This document shows, piece after piece, positions 949-56,323 of a stretch of 64,000 bases of DNA (position 1 is the stretch's first letter; each line of letters opens with the position of its first letter). The position numbers and the translations under genes were made by a program. The notes under the pieces were generated by a model. It ran no database searches and was not told where the DNA came from. It worked only from the letters and a program-made list of their open reading frames with translations. The DNA is from an uncultured bacterium (GTDB lineage Bacteria > Patescibacteriota > JAHJAL01), in the NCBI GenBank assembly GCA_938004065.1, contig CALKWM010000039.1:1313-65312 (forward strand), read 5' to 3'.

Positions 949-2208
949 TTATTTCTTACTACTCAACTGCCCGCACGCTCCGCCAATATCCGCTCCCATC
1001 GCCACTCGAACGGCTACCGGTACTCCCAGTTTATTTAATTCATCTTTAAATCTATTGACCCGAAAGTTATTCGGTTTTTTCATATTTAATTTATTTATCG
1101 CTCCCACTACCTCGGGAGCGCCCCTTTGGGGCTTCCCGCTCCTCCTCGGCAAGGAGGAGAAGCAAACGCAACCATTCTCTTTTTCAGTGGTGGAAAGTTC
1201 AAGGCAATTCCCCTCCTCGCAGGAGGATGGGCAACAAAGCCCGTCAGGGCGTATGGGGGTGGTGGTTTTGGTTGGCGGATTGTATGGGATTAAATTAACG
1301 AAAAACTGGTGATCGTACAAAATTTCCGCCAATTTTTTCGCTTGTTTTAGACTATCATTTAATCCCTCGATCAAGATATATTCATAACTTACTCTTCGGC
1401 TGGTTTGTTTGGAATACTCTCGGCAGACTTTCAATAATTCTTTGATCGTATTTGCCTTTGCCACATTGGGCATCAATTTCTCTCTTAACTCTTGATTTGG
1501 AGCATGCAAACTAATCGCCAGCCCAATATGCGGAAATTGCTCGAGAAATTTTTTGAGCGGTTCGATATATCCGCTGGTTGATACGGTAATCTTGCGTTTA
1601 CCTAATCCGAACATATGGTCATCGGTCAAAATTTCCACCGCTCTCGACACATTATTCAAATTCAACATCGGTTCGCCCATTCCCATAAATACGATATTAT
1701 TGATTGTATTTCCAGTTGAAAAGGTATTTCCCCTCCTTTCCAAGGAGGGGTGGTCCGATTTTCGGACCGGGGTGGTTTTTTCCAATTTCCGTGCGAAATA
1801 CAACACCTGATCAACAATCTCTTTGGCGGTTAAATTTCGTTTAAATCCCATCGCGCCGGTGGCGCAAAATTTACATCCCACCGGACAACCCGACTGGCTG
1901 GAAACACAAACCGTATTGCGTCCTTCGTGCATCATCAACACCGATTCGATCAGATTTCCATCCTCCAGTTTAAACAAAACTTTGATCGTGTCTGATTTAT
2001 CGCTTATTCTCTCGCTCACCAATTCCAAATCACTCAATTTTACGTTGAGTTTCAAATAATTCCGCACTTCTTTGGGCAAACTGGTCGCTTGCTCCCAATC
2101 GTGGATCAATTGTCTGAAAATAGCATGATTGATCTGCTTGCTTCTGAATTTCGGCCATCCGATTTGTTGTACTATCCGTTGGAACATTTTTCGTCTATCA
2201 ATTATCAA
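949..2208 (-). CDS. rlmN: 23S rRNA/tRNA adenine C2-methyltransferase RlmN (radical SAM), carrying two in-frame insertions.
   Basis: CPVGCKFCATG radical-SAM CxxxCxxC. NIVFMGMGEP motif. C-terminal MGADIGGACGQL matches the RlmN/Cfr C-terminus with its second catalytic Cys. Length 419 aa is above the usual ~350-390 because of extra segments. Confidence 0.85.
   Translation of the reverse strand: MIIDRRKMFQRIVQQIGWPKFRSKQINHAIFRQLIHDWEQATSLPKEVRNYLKLNVKLSDLELVSERISDKSDTIKVLFKLEDGNLIESVLMMHEGRNTVCVSSQSGCPVGCKFCATGAMGFKRNLTAKEIVDQVLYFARKLEKTTPVRKSDHPSLERRGNTFSTGNTINNIVFMGMGEPMLNLNNVSRAVEILTDDHMFGLGKRKITVSTSGYIEPLKKFLEQFPHIGLAISLHAPNQELREKLMPNVAKANTIKELLKVCREYSKQTSRRVSYEYILIEGLNDSLKQAKKLAEILYDHQFFVNLIPYNPPTKTTTPIRPDGLCCPSSCEEGNCLELSTTEKENGCVCFSSLPRRSGKPQRGAPEVVGAINKLNMKKPNNFRVNRFKDELNKLGVPVAVRVAMGADIGGACGQLSSKK
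1100..1260. repeat. Cluster of four GC-rich palindromes inserted in frame in the rlmN C-terminal region: GCTCCC..GGGAGC, GCCCCTTTGGGGC, CTCCTCGGCAAGGAGGAG, CCTCCTCGCAGGAGGA.
   Basis: Seen directly. A GC-rich block sits in an AT-rich gene. It encodes about 50 extra aa (..PIRPDGLCCPSSCEEGNCLELSTTEKENGCVCFSSLPRRSGKPQ..) between the conserved LIPYNP and NNFRVNRF..GVPVAVR segments of RlmN. Confidence 0.5.
1722..1775. repeat. Second in-frame palindromic insertion in rlmN (CCCCTCCTTTCCAAGGAGGGG and GGTCCGATTTTCGGACC).
   Basis: Two adjacent perfect hairpins. They encode an extra ~15 aa (TPVRKSDHPSLERRGNT) just upstream of the MGMGEP motif, relative to the RlmN consensus. Confidence 0.5.
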
Positions 2209-6065: not shown

Positions 6066-6160
6066 AAGTAGTGCTAATTAATTTTCTTATCTGTGTCATC
6101 CTCGAATCGAAATCCGCCCAGGGCGGAGCTTCGATATCGGGGATCCAGACTATATTATTA
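6066..6160. mobile_element. Partial MITE copy: left TIR-like AGTAGTGCTAA plus the GC-rich core GTCATCCTCGAATCGAA..CCGCCCAGGGCGG..GGGGATCC; the right arm is missing.
   Basis: Sequence similarity to the complete copies at 28493-28660 and 56180-56323. Confidence 0.5.
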
Positions 6161-6374
6161 ATTTTTATTTAATACAACTCATCAATTTAGCATTTTTCAC
6201 CAATTAACAAATTAGTTAATATATCTTTTTAGTCAATAAAGACAGGCATTATCATCATTTACAACCAACTGTTATAATTGACTTTTATTTAAAACTTTGC
6301 TACATTCAAATGAAACGTCAAAACCGACGAAAAAAATAAAAGAAAATCAAAAATAAAAAGAAAATAAAAACCAA

Positions 6375-14793: not shown

Positions 14794-17526
14794 TTGTATT
14801 CATCAATTATGAGAGCCAACTACCACAAAATTTTATTAATTTTCGATCTGGCGATAATCATCGCCTTGACGGTGTACTTGAGTTTCGCTACCGGCATGTG
14901 GCATGGCTATCCGATTGGAACGGATGCCTATGCTCACTTATCCAAAGTGAAATTTATGTACGAAAATTTTCCCAATTTTGAATGGTATTCCTATTGGGCA
15001 AACGGGATGCCGATGTTTTTGTGGTACAGTATCGTGCCATACCTCTTCATCTTGATTCTCAAATATTTGGGCTCCTCCTATGAACTTTCAATTCAATTGA
15101 TGTCAATCGCTAGTATTTTCGTAATGGTGTATTCCATCTATCGCATTGTATTATTTGGATCCAAAAATCGGATGGCGGGATTTTTGGCAGCCCTTGTCGC
15201 GCTCACCATGCCGGCCATCTGGGGACGTATGGCGATGGGGGAGATACCTCGTCTGATTGGTACCATGTTTTTGCCTCTGTCATGGCTAATGGTTATTTAT
15301 TATCTCAACACTCAAAAACCCGGACGCTGGTTAAAATTTGCTACCATCATCTCTTTGGCTTTGGCTTTCAGCGGTCACTTTATCATCACCGGTATCACTT
15401 TAGCCACCATTTTGGTAATATTTTATTTTCATGGCGGTATTAAAAAATCTTTGGAAAATATCACTCACTTAGTAATACCAGGAATGTTACTTTCATTTTT
15501 TACCGTTTTGCCATTTTTTATCTCCGCCGGTATCAAGCAGGTGTTTGGTGAAGGTTTGTTTGCCGGGGAAAGTTCTCACGCCCCCACCAATCTATGGAAA
15601 TTTGTTACCACTTTGTTTCCTCTAAACGACCGCATCGCCTGGATCGACAATGATTATGGTGCCAGTTTTCACTGGCTGGTCTTGCCGCTGGTGGCGATAT
15701 TTGTTTTTCTTGCCCTTCATCATCGTGAAAAGCACATCAACCAACAAACGGTTTTCTCCGAATGGCACATCTTGAAATCATTTTGCTATCTGAGTTTATT
15801 TATAACTCTGTTTGGCACTGCCATGTATTTTGGCTATCCTGGTAACCTGTATAACGCCTCGCTTCCTCCAACCGACGCCTTTTTCTATCTATCACTAACA
15901 CTGCCGGTCGTGATCGGTCTGGGTTTCCACTATGGTCTGGCCAGATTTCACAATCGCGCCATTGTCTTTGTCTTTAGTGTCATCTCTCTTGTTTTCGTTG
16001 CCGGAATACTCTATCCGCTCCCTGACTTCACGATCAAAGCCAATGATAACTATCGATATTTCAACAAGGAAAATACCGTCCAACAAGAATTTGCCGATAC
16101 TATCGGGGAAAATCCTGATCAAAATTATCGCTTCGCACACAACAACTCGTTTATCGCCGTTTGGTTTAACTATGATTTCAATATTCCGCAAATCCGTGAC
16201 TACTATTCTCAGGCCTTGCTAAACAACAATGAAAAATTTTGGTTTGAAAATGCTGTCTTTGCTCTCAATGATAACTATCAAGAAGTCAAATACTTGCTCG
16301 ACTGGTTTGGTGTCAAATGGCTATCGGTTTCTTATCCCAATTTCAATTTTGATAAATTCACCAACAATTCAGATCTGTTTACTCCCGTAGCATCCAACAA
16401 TAGTCCAATCAAAGAAGAACGCATTTCCACTTTCGAATATCGTAAGCCCAGCCCGATATTTGCCGCTACTGATGCCAAAACGATTCTCGTAATCGGTGAT
16501 GATGCCGCTTACAATAATCTGCTGATTTCCCTTTCCAAAACTGACCTGGGGTCCGATCAGATAATTCCGATCAAAGCTGAACAAAACGTTGAGTTCTATG
16601 ATTTGGCATACCTCCAAAGATTTGATGCGGTAATGCTCTACAACTTTACCTATCTGGAAAAAGAACATGCTTTTAACATGCTCGATCGGTATGTCTATCA
16701 AGGCGGGTCACTATTAATCGAATCATCCGGTGTCCTGTCCAAGCCCGACGGTGAAATTGCCTTCCTGCCATTTCCGGTTACCGAAATCAATCCGGGAGAT
16801 TTTGGCCGGGATTGGGATTTCAAAACTCAAGCCAATACTCTGAGCGAACCGGTTAACACTGCTGATTTCGGTCCGGCCATCTATGGTGGCGAATTACCTT
16901 GGAGTATGTTGTATGTTGAACCCGAAAACCTGCGTGATAACGCTTTCCCTATACTCTCAAATCACGGCAAAATCGTAGTCGCCGGTATGGACCATGGTGA
17001 CGGCCATGTTATCTGGAGCGGGTTAAACATGTTCTACCATTTCAATAACTATCCGCAAAACGGTGAACGTGATTTGATTACCAATATCATCAACAATATC
17101 ACCAAAAACGAAGCCAAACATCAGATAGTTAGCGGTGAACTGACCAATCCGCAATATCGTCAAATCAATATCGAAAAGTCATCATCATATACCGGCGTCT
17201 TACTCAAAGAAAATAATTTTGATTCCTGGAATGCGTACAATAACGGCCAAAAAACAGAAATCTACACCGCCGGACCCAATATGATGTATGTCTTGCTGGA
17301 TAAAAATTCCGACCAACCGCAACTGATCGAATTTACATATCGTCGGCTGTGGTTTGAATATCTCGCCTGGAGCATTTCTCTAATTTATTTCGTTTGGTTA
17401 ATATATGCCGTCTTTGTCCATCGCGATATGGTGGAAGAACTAAAACAAAAATCCAGAACCATTTCCAAAAAAAATAAATCCAACCAAAAACATAAAACCA
17501 AAGTGGTTAAACGCTCTAAAACTTAA
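14794..17526 (+). CDS. Large polytopic membrane protein, YfhO-like / GT-C-like (putative polyprenyl-phosphate-sugar-dependent glycosyltransferase).
   Basis: 910 aa. About 13 N-terminal TM helices, a ~450-aa extracytoplasmic domain, and a terminal TM plus a Lys-rich tail. It sits next to a CsbB/GtrB-like GT2, as in csbB-yfhO pairs. The family call is by architecture, not by motif. Confidence 0.45.
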   Translation: MYSSIMRANYHKILLIFDLAIIIALTVYLSFATGMWHGYPIGTDAYAHLSKVKFMYENFPNFEWYSYWANGMPMFLWYSIVPYLFILILKYLGSSYELSIQLMSIASIFVMVYSIYRIVLFGSKNRMAGFLAALVALTMPAIWGRMAMGEIPRLIGTMFLPLSWLMVIYYLNTQKPGRWLKFATIISLALAFSGHFIITGITLATILVIFYFHGGIKKSLENITHLVIPGMLLSFFTVLPFFISAGIKQVFGEGLFAGESSHAPTNLWKFVTTLFPLNDRIAWIDNDYGASFHWLVLPLVAIFVFLALHHREKHINQQTVFSEWHILKSFCYLSLFITLFGTAMYFGYPGNLYNASLPPTDAFFYLSLTLPVVIGLGFHYGLARFHNRAIVFVFSVISLVFVAGILYPLPDFTIKANDNYRYFNKENTVQQEFADTIGENPDQNYRFAHNNSFIAVWFNYDFNIPQIRDYYSQALLNNNEKFWFENAVFALNDNYQEVKYLLDWFGVKWLSVSYPNFNFDKFTNNSDLFTPVASNNSPIKEERISTFEYRKPSPIFAATDAKTILVIGDDAAYNNLLISLSKTDLGSDQIIPIKAEQNVEFYDLAYLQRFDAVMLYNFTYLEKEHAFNMLDRYVYQGGSLLIESSGVLSKPDGEIAFLPFPVTEINPGDFGRDWDFKTQANTLSEPVNTADFGPAIYGGELPWSMLYVEPENLRDNAFPILSNHGKIVVAGMDHGDGHVIWSGLNMFYHFNNYPQNGERDLITNIINNITKNEAKHQIVSGELTNPQYRQINIEKSSSYTGVLLKENNFDSWNAYNNGQKTEIYTAGPNMMYVLLDKNSDQPQLIEFTYRRLWFEYLAWSISLIYFVWLIYAVFVHRDMVEELKQKSRTISKKNKSNQKHKTKVVKRSKT

Positions 17527-20198: not shown

Positions 20199-20248
20199 TC
20201 GATCCCCGATCCGGAGCACCCTACGGGCTTCCGGTCGAGAATGACAGA
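20199..20248. repeat. MITE-core-only fragment (GATCCCCGATCCGGAGCACCCTACGGGCTTCCGGTCGAGAATGACAGA).
   Basis: It shares the GGATCCCCGAT and CGAGGATGACAGA-like ends of the MITE core but lacks the AT-rich TIR arms. Confidence 0.4.
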
Positions 20249-28492: not shown

Positions 28493-28660
28493 TTAAATAA
28501 TGAGTAGTGCTAATTTATTTTCTTATCTGTCATCCTCGAATCGATCCGCCTTGCCTGCCCGCCTTGGGTGGGGGCGGAGCTTCGATAACTTGTCCGCCTC
28601 GGGTGGATCGGGGATCCATACCATATTTCTTATTATTATTTAGCACCACTCATTAAATAA
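28493..28660 (+). mobile_element. Complete MITE (~168 bp): 20-bp TIRs TTAAATAATGAGTAGTGCTAA / TTAGCACCACTCATTAAATAA flanking the GC-rich hairpin core CTGTCATCCTCGAATCGA..CCGCC..GGCGG..CGGGGATCC.
   Basis: The TIRs match with one mismatch. The internal palindromes are perfect. Related copies occur at 6066, 14606, 36564, 55066, 56180 and 63623. Confidence 0.7.
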
Positions 28661-29935: not shown

Positions 29936-31243
29936 ATGTCCAAAATCAAACCAAAAATCGATCTGAACTCACGTTTCCAGGAAACATTGGATCTGATGGA
30001 AAACACCCGTGACAATATATTTTTAACCGGTAAAGCCGGTACCGGTAAATCGACCCTATTGCAATATTTTCGAACTACTACCGCCAAAAAAATTGTGGTC
30101 GTTGCTCCCACCGGTGTCGCCGCCCTCAATGTATCCGGCCAGACTATTCATTCATTTTTTCGATTTGCACCCGGGATTTCACCGGAAGATATCAAATTTG
30201 AAAAAAAATCCAAAAAACTCACTCAGATATTGAAAAAACTGGATATGATTATTATTGACGAGATCTCCATGGTGCGGGCGGATTTACTGGACTGTATCGA
30301 TGAGTCATTGCGATATTATTTACTTAACAACAAACCGTTCGGTGGCATCCAGATGGTGTTTATCGGAGATTTATTTCAATTGCCGCCGATCGTGGTGGGG
30401 GAGGAGGAGATGCGCAAATTCCGCACCCAATATCCCAGTCCGTACTTTTTCTCCGCCAACGTCATGCAGCAAATAGATATCAAAATAATCGAACTGGAAA
30501 CTATCTATCGCCAGTCCGATCAGATCTTTATCGACCTGCTCAACAAAATCCGTACCAATCGGGCCGATAGTGATGACATCAGTCTGCTTAATTCACGTTG
30601 CCAGGTTGATTATTTTGAACCTGAAGATATGTACATCACTCTCACCACCACCAACATTGCCGCCGACGATATTAACAAATATAAACTGGCCCAACTCACT
30701 ACCAAGTCCTATCTGCTAGCGGGAGAGCTGGCCGGAGATTTTTCCACCAAACAATTGCCGACGCAGGTTGATCTGGAAGTTAAAATCGGCTCGCAAATCA
30801 TGTTGTTAAACAACGATGCCGCCGATCGTTGGGTTAATGGTAGTATGGGGCGGATCATCGACATCACCAACAATCAATTTGATGATGATATCGTGTTGGT
30901 GGTCAAACTCGACAACGGTGAAACAGTTGAAGTGGATCGATACACCTGGCGGGCCACATCGTATTTCTATAACCCTGATACAAAAATCATGGATTCCGAA
31001 ACTGTCGGTTCGTTTACCCAATATCCTATCCGTCTCGCTTGGGCCGTTACAATCCACAAAAGTCAGGGAAAAACTTTTAACCACGTCGTTCTCGACATCG
31101 GCCGTGGGGCTTTTGCCCACGGCCAGACCTATGTCGCCATCAGTCGGGTAACCAGTTTACAGGGACTGCTCTTGCGCCGTCCCATCTCTCCCCGCGATAT
31201 CTCGATTGATACTCAAGTAGTGGAGTTTATGGCCAAAAAGTAA
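29936..31243 (+). CDS. PIF1/RecD-like superfamily-1 DNA helicase.
   Basis: Walker A GKAGTGKST. Walker B IIIDEISMV. C-terminal TIHKSQGKTF motif. Confidence 0.75.
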   Translation: MSKIKPKIDLNSRFQETLDLMENTRDNIFLTGKAGTGKSTLLQYFRTTTAKKIVVVAPTGVAALNVSGQTIHSFFRFAPGISPEDIKFEKKSKKLTQILKKLDMIIIDEISMVRADLLDCIDESLRYYLLNNKPFGGIQMVFIGDLFQLPPIVVGEEEMRKFRTQYPSPYFFSANVMQQIDIKIIELETIYRQSDQIFIDLLNKIRTNRADSDDISLLNSRCQVDYFEPEDMYITLTTTNIAADDINKYKLAQLTTKSYLLAGELAGDFSTKQLPTQVDLEVKIGSQIMLLNNDAADRWVNGSMGRIIDITNNQFDDDIVLVVKLDNGETVEVDRYTWRATSYFYNPDTKIMDSETVGSFTQYPIRLAWAVTIHKSQGKTFNHVVLDIGRGAFAHGQTYVAISRVTSLQGLLLRRPISPRDISIDTQVVEFMAKK

Positions 31244-36563: not shown

Positions 36564-36690
36564 TTAATAATGAGTAGTGCTAAATAAAAATAAGAAATAT
36601 GGTATGGATCCCCGATATCGAAGCTCCGCCCTGGGCGGATTTCGATTCGAGGATGACAGATAGGAAATTAATAAGCACTACTCATTAATT
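36564..36690 (-). mobile_element. MITE copy (~127 bp, short variant) in inverted orientation.
   Basis: TIRs TTAATAATGAGTAGTGCTAA / TTAATAAGCACTACTCATTAA. Core GGATCCCCGATATCGAAGCTCCGCCCTGGGCGGATTTCGATTCGAGGATGACAG is the reverse complement of the core in the 6066 copy. Confidence 0.7.
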
Positions 36691-47951: not shown

Positions 47952-48134
47952 ATGTATAAATCTAAATCAGGAATGATTTTTGCTAATTGTGAAGAATGTG
48001 GCGAAGAGCTCAATGAAATGGAACAAGAATTTTGCGACAAGAAATATCTGGAAATTGGTATGTTAAAAGCTATATGCAGTGAATGTTTATCAAAAAACTA
48101 CGAAGGTAAATTTCCATATTTACCGAAAAAGTAA
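47952..48134 (+). CDS. Small zinc-ribbon protein (CxxC..CxxC).
   Basis: CEECG..CSEC. GGAGGT Shine-Dalgarno 6 nt upstream of the ATG. Confidence 0.45.
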   Translation: MYKSKSGMIFANCEECGEELNEMEQEFCDKKYLEIGMLKAICSECLSKNYEGKFPYLPKK

Positions 48135-48206
48135 TTTATAATTAAAATTTAACCACTATCTTGTAATTTTAATATATATGAATAACTTACCCCCGCCGAA
48201 AAAAGA

Positions 48207-48536
48207 GTGATCATCGACAAGGGTACGGAAGCGCCTTTTTCCGGCGAATATGTAAATACCAAAGACGAAGGGGTATATGTCTGCCGGCAGTGCGAAGCGC
48301 CACTTTATCGTTCCCAGGACAAATTTGATTCCGGTTGCGGCTGGCCGAGTTTTGATGACGAGATCGCCGCCGGGGCGGTGAAAAGAGTGCCGGACCCTGA
48401 CGGACAGCGCACGGAAATAGTTTGCGCGCGGTGCGGTGGTCATCTGGGCCATGTTTTCACCGGCGAAAAGTTGACGGCCAAAGATGTGCGGCATTGCGTC
48501 AATTCGATCTCGATGATATTTATTCCCAAAAAATAA
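48207..48536 (+). CDS. msrB: Peptide methionine sulfoxide reductase MsrB; the N-terminus is possibly disrupted by a 1-nt frame change at 48178-48210.
   Basis: [37 protein letters not shown], with CxxC..CGWP and the catalytic Cys in [10 protein letters not shown]. The conserved LTPAEKRV lies in frame upstream with no start, while an ATG ([10 protein letters not shown]) sits in the adjacent frame. Confidence 0.75.
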
Positions 48537-48540
48537 TAGC

Positions 48541-49032
48541 ATGAATAAAAAGATAATATTGGCCGGGGGCTGTTTCTGGGGACTGGAAGAACTTTTTCGC
48601 CGGCAAAAAGGAGTGCTGGATATCACCGCCGGTTACACCGGCGGAAGCAATGCTGATCCGACCTACGAAAACCATCCCGGTCACGCCGAAGCGCTGGAGA
48701 TCGTGTACGATGACACCCGTACCGATTTTTGGCATTTGCTCGATTTCTTTTTTCAGATCCACGATCCCACCACTTTGAACCGGCAGGGCAATGATTTCGG
48801 CGATTCTTATCGTTCGGCGATATTTTATCAAAACGAGGAGGAGAAAAAGCAGGCCGAAGATTTTATCAAAATTGTCGATGATTCCGGGCGCTGGCCGAAT
48901 CCGGTGGTGACCACGCTGGAGCCGTTTACCGGATTTTATCCGGCCGAAGAATATCATCAGGATTATCTGCAGAAAAATCCGGGTGGCTACACCTGCCATC
49001 GGATTTATTTTGATAGTTATTTGCCGGAATGA
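48541..49032 (+). CDS. msrA: Peptide methionine sulfoxide reductase MsrA.
   Basis: ILAGGCFWGLEELF is the MsrA GCFWG active-site motif. Confidence 0.85.
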   Translation: MNKKIILAGGCFWGLEELFRRQKGVLDITAGYTGGSNADPTYENHPGHAEALEIVYDDTRTDFWHLLDFFFQIHDPTTLNRQGNDFGDSYRSAIFYQNEEEKKQAEDFIKIVDDSGRWPNPVVTTLEPFTGFYPAEEYHQDYLQKNPGGYTCHRIYFDSYLPE

Positions 49033-49035
49033 TTT

Positions 49036-49100
49036 CTGGATCCCCGCCCGCCGCGGCGGGCGGACAGGCCCTATTCCGCCCGAGGCGAATCGAGGATGAT
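49036..49100. repeat. GC-rich palindrome CCGCCCGCCGCGGCGGGCGG plus a MITE-core-like fragment (GGATCCCC..CCGCCCGAGGCG..CGAGGATGA).
   Basis: Perfect 20-bp palindrome immediately after the msrA stop, carrying the core-end motifs of the MITE family. Confidence 0.45.
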
Positions 49101-55065: not shown

Positions 55066-55160
55066 TATAAGTAGTACTTGTGATTTTTTTATCTGTCATC
55101 CTCGAGTCGAAAGCGAGGAACGAGTGATTAGACATCGGGGATCCATTCCATATTTCATAT
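55066..55160. mobile_element. Partial/degenerate MITE copy (core GTCATCCTCGAGTCGAAAGCGAGGAACGAG..CATCGGGGATCC).
   Basis: Similarity to the core and left TIR region of the other copies. Confidence 0.5.
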
Positions 55161-55253
55161 TTGTAATTATTGTCAATCTTCTGTTTGCATAACTGAAGTG
55201 TTAATGTCTGGTATAATATTATTATAATATATTTGTTGTTTTGGAGTACAAAA

Positions 55254-56151: not shown

Positions 56152-56179
56152 TTGTTTCTCAAATTACACGATATATAAA

Positions 56180-56323
56180 TTAATGAGTAGTGCTAAATAA
56201 AAATAAGAAATATGGTATGGATCCCCGATCCGCCCGAGGCGGACAGGTTGTCTAATCGCTCGTTCCTCGCTTTCGACTCGAGGATGACAGATAAGAAAAT
56301 TAATTAGCATTACTCATTATTTA
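56180..56323 (-). mobile_element. Complete MITE copy (~144 bp) in inverted orientation, abutting the stop codon of the PEP-enzyme gene.
   Basis: TIRs TTAATGAGTAGTGCTAA / TTAGCATTACTCATTA. Core GGATCCCCGATCCGCCCGAGGCGGACAGG..CGACTCGAGGATGACAG. Confidence 0.7.

Follow-up and report, generated by a model that had tools for sequence, protein, structure and literature searches.

An uncultured member of the Patescibacteria (candidate phyla radiation, CPR), represented by a metagenome-assembled genome (MAG), carries two GC-rich blocks of hairpins inside the gene for the radical-SAM enzyme RlmN. The gene lies in a 64,000-nucleotide stretch (GenBank assembly GCA_938004065.1, contig CALKWM010000039.1, positions 1,313 to 65,312) that we refer to as the window; unless a locus is named, coordinates are positions in the window (Table 1). 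The rlmN blocks consist of copies that belong to a dispersed repeat family, stand in frame, and differ between near-identical strains.

The rlmN gene and its GC-rich blocks

The open reading frame (ORF) of rlmN is uninterrupted across all 419 codons, both blocks included; in the database entry (P0001), translation begins at the ATG of position 2187, for a length of 412 amino acids. The product scores 319.3 bits against TIGR00048, above the curated equivalog cutoff of 290, with the match split into two stretches because of the inserts, and also matches the Radical_SAM and RlmN_N families. C108, C112, and C115 of the CX3CX2C motif, together with C101 and C412, are invariant in the orthologue alignment, and the mechanistic cysteines of the Escherichia coli enzyme, C118 and C355, have conserved counterparts. 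An initial annotation of the window had described the catalytic segments as intact, which the conservation of these five cysteines confirms. It had also called rlmN essential, which is unwarranted: knockouts are viable in E. coli, and the gene is dispensable in model bacteria.

Both blocks are richer in GC than the rest of rlmN (0.40) and the window (0.38). Four of the 12 perfect GC-rich hairpins of the 64-kb window (stem of at least 7, GC at least 60%) fall within the 231 nt of the blocks (binomial P = 8e-8), which, with the open frame, bears out the claim of the initial annotation that GC-rich hairpin blocks sit in rlmN without breaking it. The RNA folding check proposed there had the same outcome, each block being more stable than 200 of 200 shuffles (z = -3.3 for both). 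Inside rlmN, no terminator-like site was found on the coding strand.

Block 1 (site 1) adds about 59 amino acids and block 2 (site 2) about 20; the earlier estimates of about 50 and 15 were too low. Among the nearest solved structures (6FZ6, 3RF9, and 5HR7), comparison with 6FZ6 shows residues 144-163 (20 amino acids) of the window protein as extra and residues 314-377 (64 amino acids) in place of 5 residues. In the AlphaFold2 model, the predicted local distance difference test (pLDDT) score exceeds 90 in the core and drops below 50 only at residues 153-164, residues 315-372, and the C-terminal tail, all modeled without secondary structure. Both inserts are thus predicted to fall in disordered loops between secondary structure elements. 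The proposal that they map to surface loops stands as regards the loops; the exposure itself is likewise read from the model. At both places, loop length differs from one orthologue to the next, and 31 of the 120 closest homologues have 8 or more inserted amino acids at the site-2 loop. An assembly artefact is made less likely by the presence of the identical 412-residue protein on NCBI, ENA, and Logan contigs that are independent of one another.

In the nearest relative (protein P0002, locus L001), rlmN DNA is 94-97% identical to that of the window outside the blocks. The two RlmN proteins are 85-87% identical overall, the differences being concentrated in the variable insert segments. At site 1, the 5' half of the block (1a) is unalignable between the two alleles, and the 3' half (1b) is 97% identical. 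The site-2 segment, absent from 6FZ6, is replaced in L001 by unrelated sequence with a perfect hairpin of the GTAG type of repetitive extragenic palindromes (REPs), GTAGGGGCAGGCCTTGCGCCTGCCCGTAC. In orthologues whose proteins are 61-66% identical, the loops are short at site 1 as well as at site 2.

A two-hairpin repeat family across phyla

Window site 2, window 1a, and L001 1a share a common plan: AAAACCACC, a hairpin, then CCTCCT..AGGAGG. A search pattern drawn from these three sequences and scanned against species-representative genomes matched at least 119 loci across many phyla, about 3 matches being expected by chance (a rough estimate that assumes uniform base composition). The matches listed include loci from Bacteroidota (among them the cultivable Mesonia, Gelidibacter, and Carboxylicivirga), Acidobacteriota, Planctomycetota, Nitrospirota, Armatimonadota, Proteobacteria, and two Roizmanbacteria; the window's own genome is not among them. 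Several features left unspecified by the pattern are common to the matches, namely CC(G) behind the tag, a middle segment of arbitrary sequence that folds into a hairpin in every case, CAC ahead of the second hairpin, a TT/AA extension of that hairpin, and an AGCTTT-like tail. The unit can thus be written as a AAAACCACC(C/T)C tag, an arbitrary-sequence hairpin (hairpin 1), (C)AC, the conserved hairpin CCCTCCTT-loop-AAGGAGGG (hairpin 2), and an A/T-rich tail. In an alignment of 19 copies, hairpin 1 shows compensatory double changes at 6 of 6 pairs, a count that is biased because the seeds were picked for a foldable middle segment; its covariation score was reached by none of 500 shuffles, and slid registers all scored far lower.

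A covariance model (R1: AAAACCACCCC, variable hairpin, CACCCCTCCTT-loop-AAGGAGGGG) was built from these 19 copies only, none of them from CPR, and all three rlmN sub-blocks match it. Window site 2 matches over the full length of the model (1-56) with 65.6 bits (E = 3e-18); its sequence, AAAAAACCACCCCG-[GGUCCGAAAAUCGGACC]-CA-[CCCCUCCUUGGAAAGGAGGGG]-AAAUAC, encodes KTTPVRKSDHPSLERRGN and is 85% identical to a betaproteobacterial copy. For 1a of the window, R1 gives 18.8 bits (E = 8e-4; with filters off, 18.7 bits, E = 4e-4), the same position in L001 being occupied by a canonical copy (53.5 bits). Window 1b scores 16.4 bits (E = 4e-3) and its L001 counterpart 29.1 bits (E = 5e-7), antisense. Judged by R1 scores and orientations, block 2 is a single canonical copy and block 1 an inverted doublet, with 1a sense, 1b antisense, and a total of about 170 nt including the spacer. 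The outer ends of the doublet are AAAACCACC... and ...GAGGT(A/G)GT; the extra stem at 1099-1120, beside 1b, draws on flanking sequence. The spacer may keep the ancestral loop (compare PPTGNCGVCFKKPN in P0003). Derivation of the site-2 copy from the 1a copy of the sister strain was considered and rejected, as the two are 80% identical, no closer than the 85% shared with the betaproteobacterial copy, and belong to different subtypes (C versus T variants).

Table 1. Features of the window and related loci (positions in the window unless a locus is given)
Feature	Position	Strand	Details
rlmN coding sequence	949..2208	minus	419 aa from TTG start; ORF list
Block 1	1099-1271		GC 0.60
Perfect hairpin	1099-1120	plus	CGCTCCC/GGGAGCG
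Perfect hairpin	1120-1132	plus	GCCCC TTT GGGGC
Perfect hairpin	1139-1159	plus	CTCCTCCT/AGGAGGAG
Perfect hairpin	1212-1226	plus	CCTCCT CGC AGGAGG
Perfect hairpin	1239-1250	plus	GCCC GTCA GGGC
Site 1b, copy antisense to rlmN, right half of doublet	1106..1165	plus	hairpins 1139-1159, 1120-1132
Doublet spacer	1166..1203	minus	38 nt; encodes ..LELSTTEKENGCVCF; rearranged relative to L001
Site 1a, degenerate sense copy, left half of doublet	1204..1271	minus	AAAACCACCACCCCC..GCCCTGACGGGC..CCTCCTGCGAGGAGGGGAAT
Non-palindromic rest of the variable site-2 loop	1700..1723	minus	encodes TFSTGNTI; orthologue alignment
Block 2	1724-1781		GC 0.53
Site-2 insert, one canonical two-hairpin copy, sense	1724..1781	minus	58 nt; R1 match
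Hairpin 2 of the site-2 copy	1730..1750		perfect 9-bp stem, CCCCTCCTT TCC AAGGAGGGG
Hairpin 1 of the site-2 copy	1752..1768		perfect 7-bp stem, GGTCCGA TTT TCGGACC; the family's variable hairpin
Intergenic copy resembling a MITE (miniature inverted-repeat transposable element)	~6067-6187	plus
Intergenic MITE-like copy	20200-20245	minus
Intergenic MITE-like copy	28500-28655	plus
Intergenic MITE-like copy	~36568-36687	minus
Intergenic MITE-like copy	~55066-55170	plus
Intergenic MITE-like copy	~56175-56318	minus
Intergenic MITE-like copy	L002: ~15030-15160

Of the 134 copies among the matches listed, 105 are located outside ORFs. The genes on either side are convergent for 27 copies, tandem for 18 and 17, and divergent for 1, without orientation bias. 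Adjacent copies form 27 inverted pairs of the "+ then -" kind versus 6 of the other kind; the outer ends of such doublets in other phyla are AAAACCACCCC...GGGGTGGTTTT, and rlmN site 1 shows the same "+ then -" arrangement. Copies also occur in frame in other genes, all from Bacteroidota (Raineyaceae) MAGs: a doublet at residues 301-322 of EPSP synthase (aroA; L054:2961-4337(-)), where one continuous Pfam match spans the insert, and doublets in SNF2-family helicases (L090:5230-7998(-) and L120:1-2364(+)). Adaptation of the family to coding sequence was rejected, as neither of its expected marks, open frames and a length divisible by 3, was seen: the three residues modulo 3 are evenly represented among the copy lengths, and open frames are no more common than in shuffled sequence. 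The coding copies are therefore a filtered (selected) subset, without adaptation of the element.

A general role as a leader that sequesters the Shine-Dalgarno (SD) sequence was likewise rejected. Among the matches listed, only 8 of 134 copies directly precede an ORF of at least 70 amino acids and 9 of 140 precede an ORF of at least 12 amino acids that starts with ATG, and both orientations are equally common in tandem contexts. Bacteroidota, where the family is common, rarely use SD sequences. Rfam 15 yielded no match on the element in 14 loci at the gathering score and, at E <= 1-10 for the window and five loci, only noise resembling microRNA hairpins. A search of a paper library by sequence strings and keywords found no description of the two-hairpin element in the papers it covered.

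Two side observations concern individual carriers. In five loci, a conserved small hydrophobic ORF (MK[AV]LIIK..IIL.S.Y, about 20-31 amino acids) lies downstream of the AGGAGG arm of hairpin 2, with its start 10 nt past the arm. These loci come from the Armatimonadota MAG JBIJDE01 (L031:22-168 and L041:1962-2108) and from unclassified "uncultured bacterium" MAGs (L046:6276-6422, L034, and L050). In L031, L041, and L046, the small ORF sequence is the 51-nt spacer of a doublet, and, judged by sequence, the peptide resembles type I toxin-like peptides. In Carboxylicivirga (L021:374-430 and 795-870), identical element copies with identical flanks are present on several contigs, about 370 nt beyond a 5S rRNA gene where this is visible; a copy may follow each rRNA operon.

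Repeats in relatives and elsewhere in the genome

In three more distantly related genomes (L003, L005, and L007), other perfect GC hairpins stand in frame at site 2 or in other rlmN loops. Hairpins with a GTAG tag number 13 in 21 kb (L003) and 9 in 11 kb (L005), clustered around a gene resembling those of REP-associated tyrosine transposases (RAYTs). These RAYT-like genes (L003:6861-7463(+) and L005:6646-7317(-)) match Pfam Y1_Tnp at 30.7 and 27.8 bits and the NCBIfam REP-associated tyrosine transposase at 53 and 61 bits, respectively. They carry genome-specific GTAG hairpins in frame, the same as in their own rlmN, between the HUH and Tyr motifs (VGAGSPRPS; GTQQRAPT), and in these relatives rlmN lies about 2.5 kb from the RAYT cluster. 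The window contains 0 GTAGGGGC. In other CPR RlmN proteins (P0033, P0015, and P0017/P0103/P0060), the site-2 inserts resemble translated repeats, for example SPFEKGGLRGIF...SPLKGEGE and HGLRGFETDNADNKIHPQNQPKI, which suggests that several repeat families strike this loop.

The search for other copies of the palindromes, proposed in the initial annotation, thus succeeded in other genomes and failed, outside rlmN, in the 82.6 kb of this genome that were covered: blastn of the inserts against the window returned only self-similarity, and R1, run without filters, matched no site beyond rlmN in either the window or two flanking loci. The lone rlmN copies could reflect a family close to extinction here that persists only at places where its loss is costly, an exchange of rlmN segments through recombination, or a genuine hot spot in rlmN.

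The initial annotation had also related the palindromes to intergenic MITEs of the window. These form a separate family that R1 does not match, with AT-rich terminal inverted repeats (TIRs) and a GTCATCCTCGA...GGATCGGGGATC core, and we rejected the kinship. All seven copies seen are intergenic; their TIRs, TAATGAGTAGTGCTAA... and ...TTAGCACTACTCATTA, surround a modular GC-rich core, GTCATCCTCGA...ATCGGGGATCC, with varying internal hairpins. The GC core of this family (GGGATCCCCGAT..CCGGAGCGCTGCGCTTCCGGTCGGGGATGAC) is nevertheless present in frame in a third loop of rlmN in a relative of 50% identity (L005:10228-10295, amino acids 76-98).

Among other window genes, the top candidate for a hairpin insert, and the strongest hairpin of the window (GGCCGTGG..CCACGGCC, -21 kcal/mol, 31099-31124), was rejected, as it encodes a native conserved motif, GRGAFAHGQTYVA, of a PIF1-like helicase. 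The AT-rich region upstream of rlmN contains a double GC hairpin at 2325-2358 (CCGCC CAA GGCGG; GCGCC TAG GGCGC), covered by a DNA match between the window and L001 of 96.5% over 665 nt, with synteny ending at about 2447. A GC-rich island at about 48100-49100, where ORFs that have no Pfam match overlap on the two strands, contains several perfect GC hairpins (48626, 49044, and 49057).

Relation to known repeats and origin of the inserts

In Rickettsia, palindromic elements (RPEs) are in-frame palindromic repeats that add tens of residues, sometimes at two sites of a gene, leave the genes functional, and occur between genes as well (Ogata et al. 2000, as cited in PMC3733652). The rlmN inserts share this mode of insertion: the frame is open, neither orthologues nor 6FZ6 contain the inserts, and the inserts fall in low-pLDDT loops. 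The initial annotation had read the blocks as repeat-derived palindromes inserted in frame in the manner of RPEs, a reading supported by the R1 matches, by the presence of other palindrome families at the same loops, and by the comparison of close relatives it had proposed, in which the blocks of L001 differ although the flanks are 94-97% identical. The likeness seen is in the mode of insertion. The host belongs to the Patescibacteria/CPR, a single gene was seen to be hit in 82.6 kb, and the element has two hairpins and a CCACC tag, whereas RPE-4 and RPE-6 are described as intragenic, CGTC-tagged single hairpins (PMC3733652).

Intragenic GTAG/CGTC REPs are documented singly, in pairs as dimers, and in clusters, encoding 20-82 amino acids and sometimes occupying two sites of a gene (PMC3733652), and the GTAG hairpins in rlmN of L001, L003, L005, and L007 follow this documented pattern. 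REPs lie mostly downstream of genes, between convergent or tandem genes, and often form inverted dimers (Di Nocera et al. 2013, PMC3733652); the two-hairpin family is distributed around genes in the same way. It differs from REPs, which have been described as species-specific (PMC6006769), by a second, sequence-conserved hairpin (CCCCTCCTT/AAGGAGGGG) and by its conservation across phyla. The conserved 5' tag of the element is CCAC(C), with GTGG on the other strand only, 3' of the hairpin, and some hairpin-1 copies start with CGTC but this is not general, so that, by the defining tag, the rlmN element falls outside the GTAG/CGTC classes. REPs and bacterial interspersed mosaic elements (BIMEs) are short, GC-rich, imperfect palindromes, mostly extragenic and present in many copies per genome. 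The comparison with them is mixed: the two-hairpin element has palindromes, and in other genomes the family is multi-copy and extragenic; the three copies in 82.6 kb of this genome are all intragenic.

Inverted doublets are the common unit of BIMEs and of REP doublets (REPINs; Bertels & Rainey 2011, PMC3116915; Quentin et al. 2018, PMC6006769). Among the matches listed, 27 of 33 adjacent pairs of the two-hairpin family are inverted, rlmN site 1 being one such pair, and the RAYT-like Y1 transposase of the relatives is surrounded by hairpins. Unlike in these systems, no RAYT was found near the copies examined or in the sampled part of the genome, and the guide tetranucleotide is non-classical. 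The doublets resemble MITEs (PMC10969869, PMC2229807) in their TIRs (AAAACCACCCC...GGGGTGGTTTT), their length of about 90-170 bp, and their non-coding, multi-copy nature, but single half-elements are common in the family; no target-site duplication was found at 25 doublet flanks, and no parent insertion sequence or transposase nearby.

Taken together, the evidence makes it probable that both blocks are made up of three copies of a small, non-coding palindromic repeat, REP/RPE-like selfish insertions kept in permissive loops. The element would have been inserted as DNA by an enzyme acting in trans; by analogy with the relatives, where a RAYT accompanies hairpins that have entered the same gene, the best guess for this enzyme is a single-strand HUH/Y1 (RAYT-like) transposase. 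Selection would then have purged insertions that cause frameshifts, introduce stops, or disrupt structured parts of RlmN, so that the survivors mark permissive loops. The inserts would be translated into flexible peptides biased toward GC-rich codons and would be selfish or neutral passengers, not functional parts of RlmN. Where a genome is small and densely packed with genes, copies in coding sequence may persist longer than those between genes, since their imprecise removal would ruin the host gene.

Several observations weigh against this interpretation. With filters off, R1 detects only the three rlmN copies in the 82.6 kb (record positions 33974-116576), and the presence of three copies in one gene is an unexplained cluster; 1a and 1b of the window match R1 weakly. 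Part of the similarity within the family arises by construction, as the seed pattern was built from rlmN copies. We saw neither a target-site duplication at the rlmN sites nor a pair of empty and filled sites for one and the same element. The 5' GTAG or CGTC tag that marks classified REPs is missing, and a cross-phylum conservation such as that between window site 2 and the betaproteobacterial copy is atypical for REPs. No RAYT or other transposase was found in the 82.6 kb; tblastn with two divergent CPR RAYT-like queries gave no match in the window, L001, or L002, nor in 762 kb around copies in other phyla, a weak test given that only two queries were used.

Co-option of the inserts, with the hairpins acting in the transcript of rlmN (through stability, ribosome-site-like pausing at the internal AGGAGG, or attenuation) or the loops acting in the protein, as could be imagined for the six-cysteine stretch GLCCPSSCEEGNCLELSTTEKENGCVCF in a radical-SAM enzyme, would fit a site-2 copy as canonical as the best intergenic copies (65.6 bits, perfect stems), the 97% identity of 1b between strains, the occurrence of three copies in rlmN with none elsewhere in 82.6 kb, and the Cys-rich inserts of P0010 and P0001. 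We consider it unlikely, given that strains whose flanks are 94-97% identical have exchanged what occupies both sites, there are insert-free orthologues at 61-66% identity, the inserts are modeled as disordered, the coding strand lacks a terminator-like site, and the same family occurs in unrelated genes and is mostly intergenic; the Cys codons are an expected by-product of GCA/TGC palindromes. It is quite improbable that rlmN is inactive or decaying in this lineage and that inserts pile up under relaxed selection. The gene is dispensable in model bacteria and holds three or more inserts whose content differs between strains, but the frame is open over 419 codons, the invariant residues, including CX3CX2C and both catalytic Cys, are kept, the score exceeds the TIGR00048 equivalog cutoff, core pLDDT is above 90, and outside the variable insert segments most nucleotide differences relative to L001 are silent for the protein.

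Ordinary lineage-specific loop expansions, with hairpins arising by coincidence and no mobile origin, would be in keeping with the variable length of the site-2 loop in many RlmN homologues. They are very hard to reconcile with a full-length match (E = 3e-18) to a model of a family defined in other phyla, the hairpin enrichment (P = 8e-8), the replacement of whole segments between near-identical alleles, and a doublet architecture that is that of the intergenic copies. GC clusters of yeast mitochondrial DNA and byp elements are GC-rich palindromes that invade AT-rich coding sequence and are polymorphic between strains; both are organellar systems, and byp elements are bypassed in translation. 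With their GC-rich hairpins placed in coding sequence within an AT-rich genome, the inserts resemble byp elements and might by analogy stay untranslated, through ribosomal bypassing or RNA removal as for the byp elements of Magnusiomyces mitochondria or T4 gene 60. This is highly improbable: with the frame kept and stops lacking in all three copies, bypass is unneeded, no stop codon follows a take-off site, the lengths of the family are unadapted in either direction, and nothing in the rlmN case suggests translational bypass. Misassembly or an assembly chimera at the repeats, a concern for any MAG since repeats are error-prone in assembly, is scarcely credible here: the identical 412-residue protein is found on several NCBI, ENA, and Logan contigs, block 1b is common to the sister allele, and the frame is preserved in both alleles.

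Selfish repeats within genes are already known, and the two-hairpin repeat is apparently undescribed. More tentatively than the selfish insertion proposed above, and with doubt on our part, the CCACC-tag element (AAAACCACCCC / variable hairpin / CCCCTCCTT-AAGGAGGGG) could be a mobile or structured element conserved across bacteria that has a dedicated, conserved partner and repeatedly colonizes permissive protein loops. Its cross-phylum conservation would imply such a partner, which, if the proposal is true, could take the form of a novel transposase specificity or of a host factor recognizing the CCACC tag together with the SD/anti-SD-like hairpin; coding sequence would then be the last refuge of the element in streamlined CPR genomes.

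The rlmN inserts extend selfish DNA within protein-coding genes (RPEs, intragenic REPs) to the candidate phyla radiation, point to a concrete origin of the so far unexplained differences in length among CPR proteins, and map by natural experiment which loops of a radical-SAM enzyme tolerate insertions. Their turnover is fast, different repeat families occupying the same loop between flanks that are 94-97% identical. The repeat itself may outweigh the rlmN case, as cross-phylum conservation is unusual for REP-like elements, and its cultivable Bacteroidota carriers make the function of the element and the enzyme that mobilizes it testable there.

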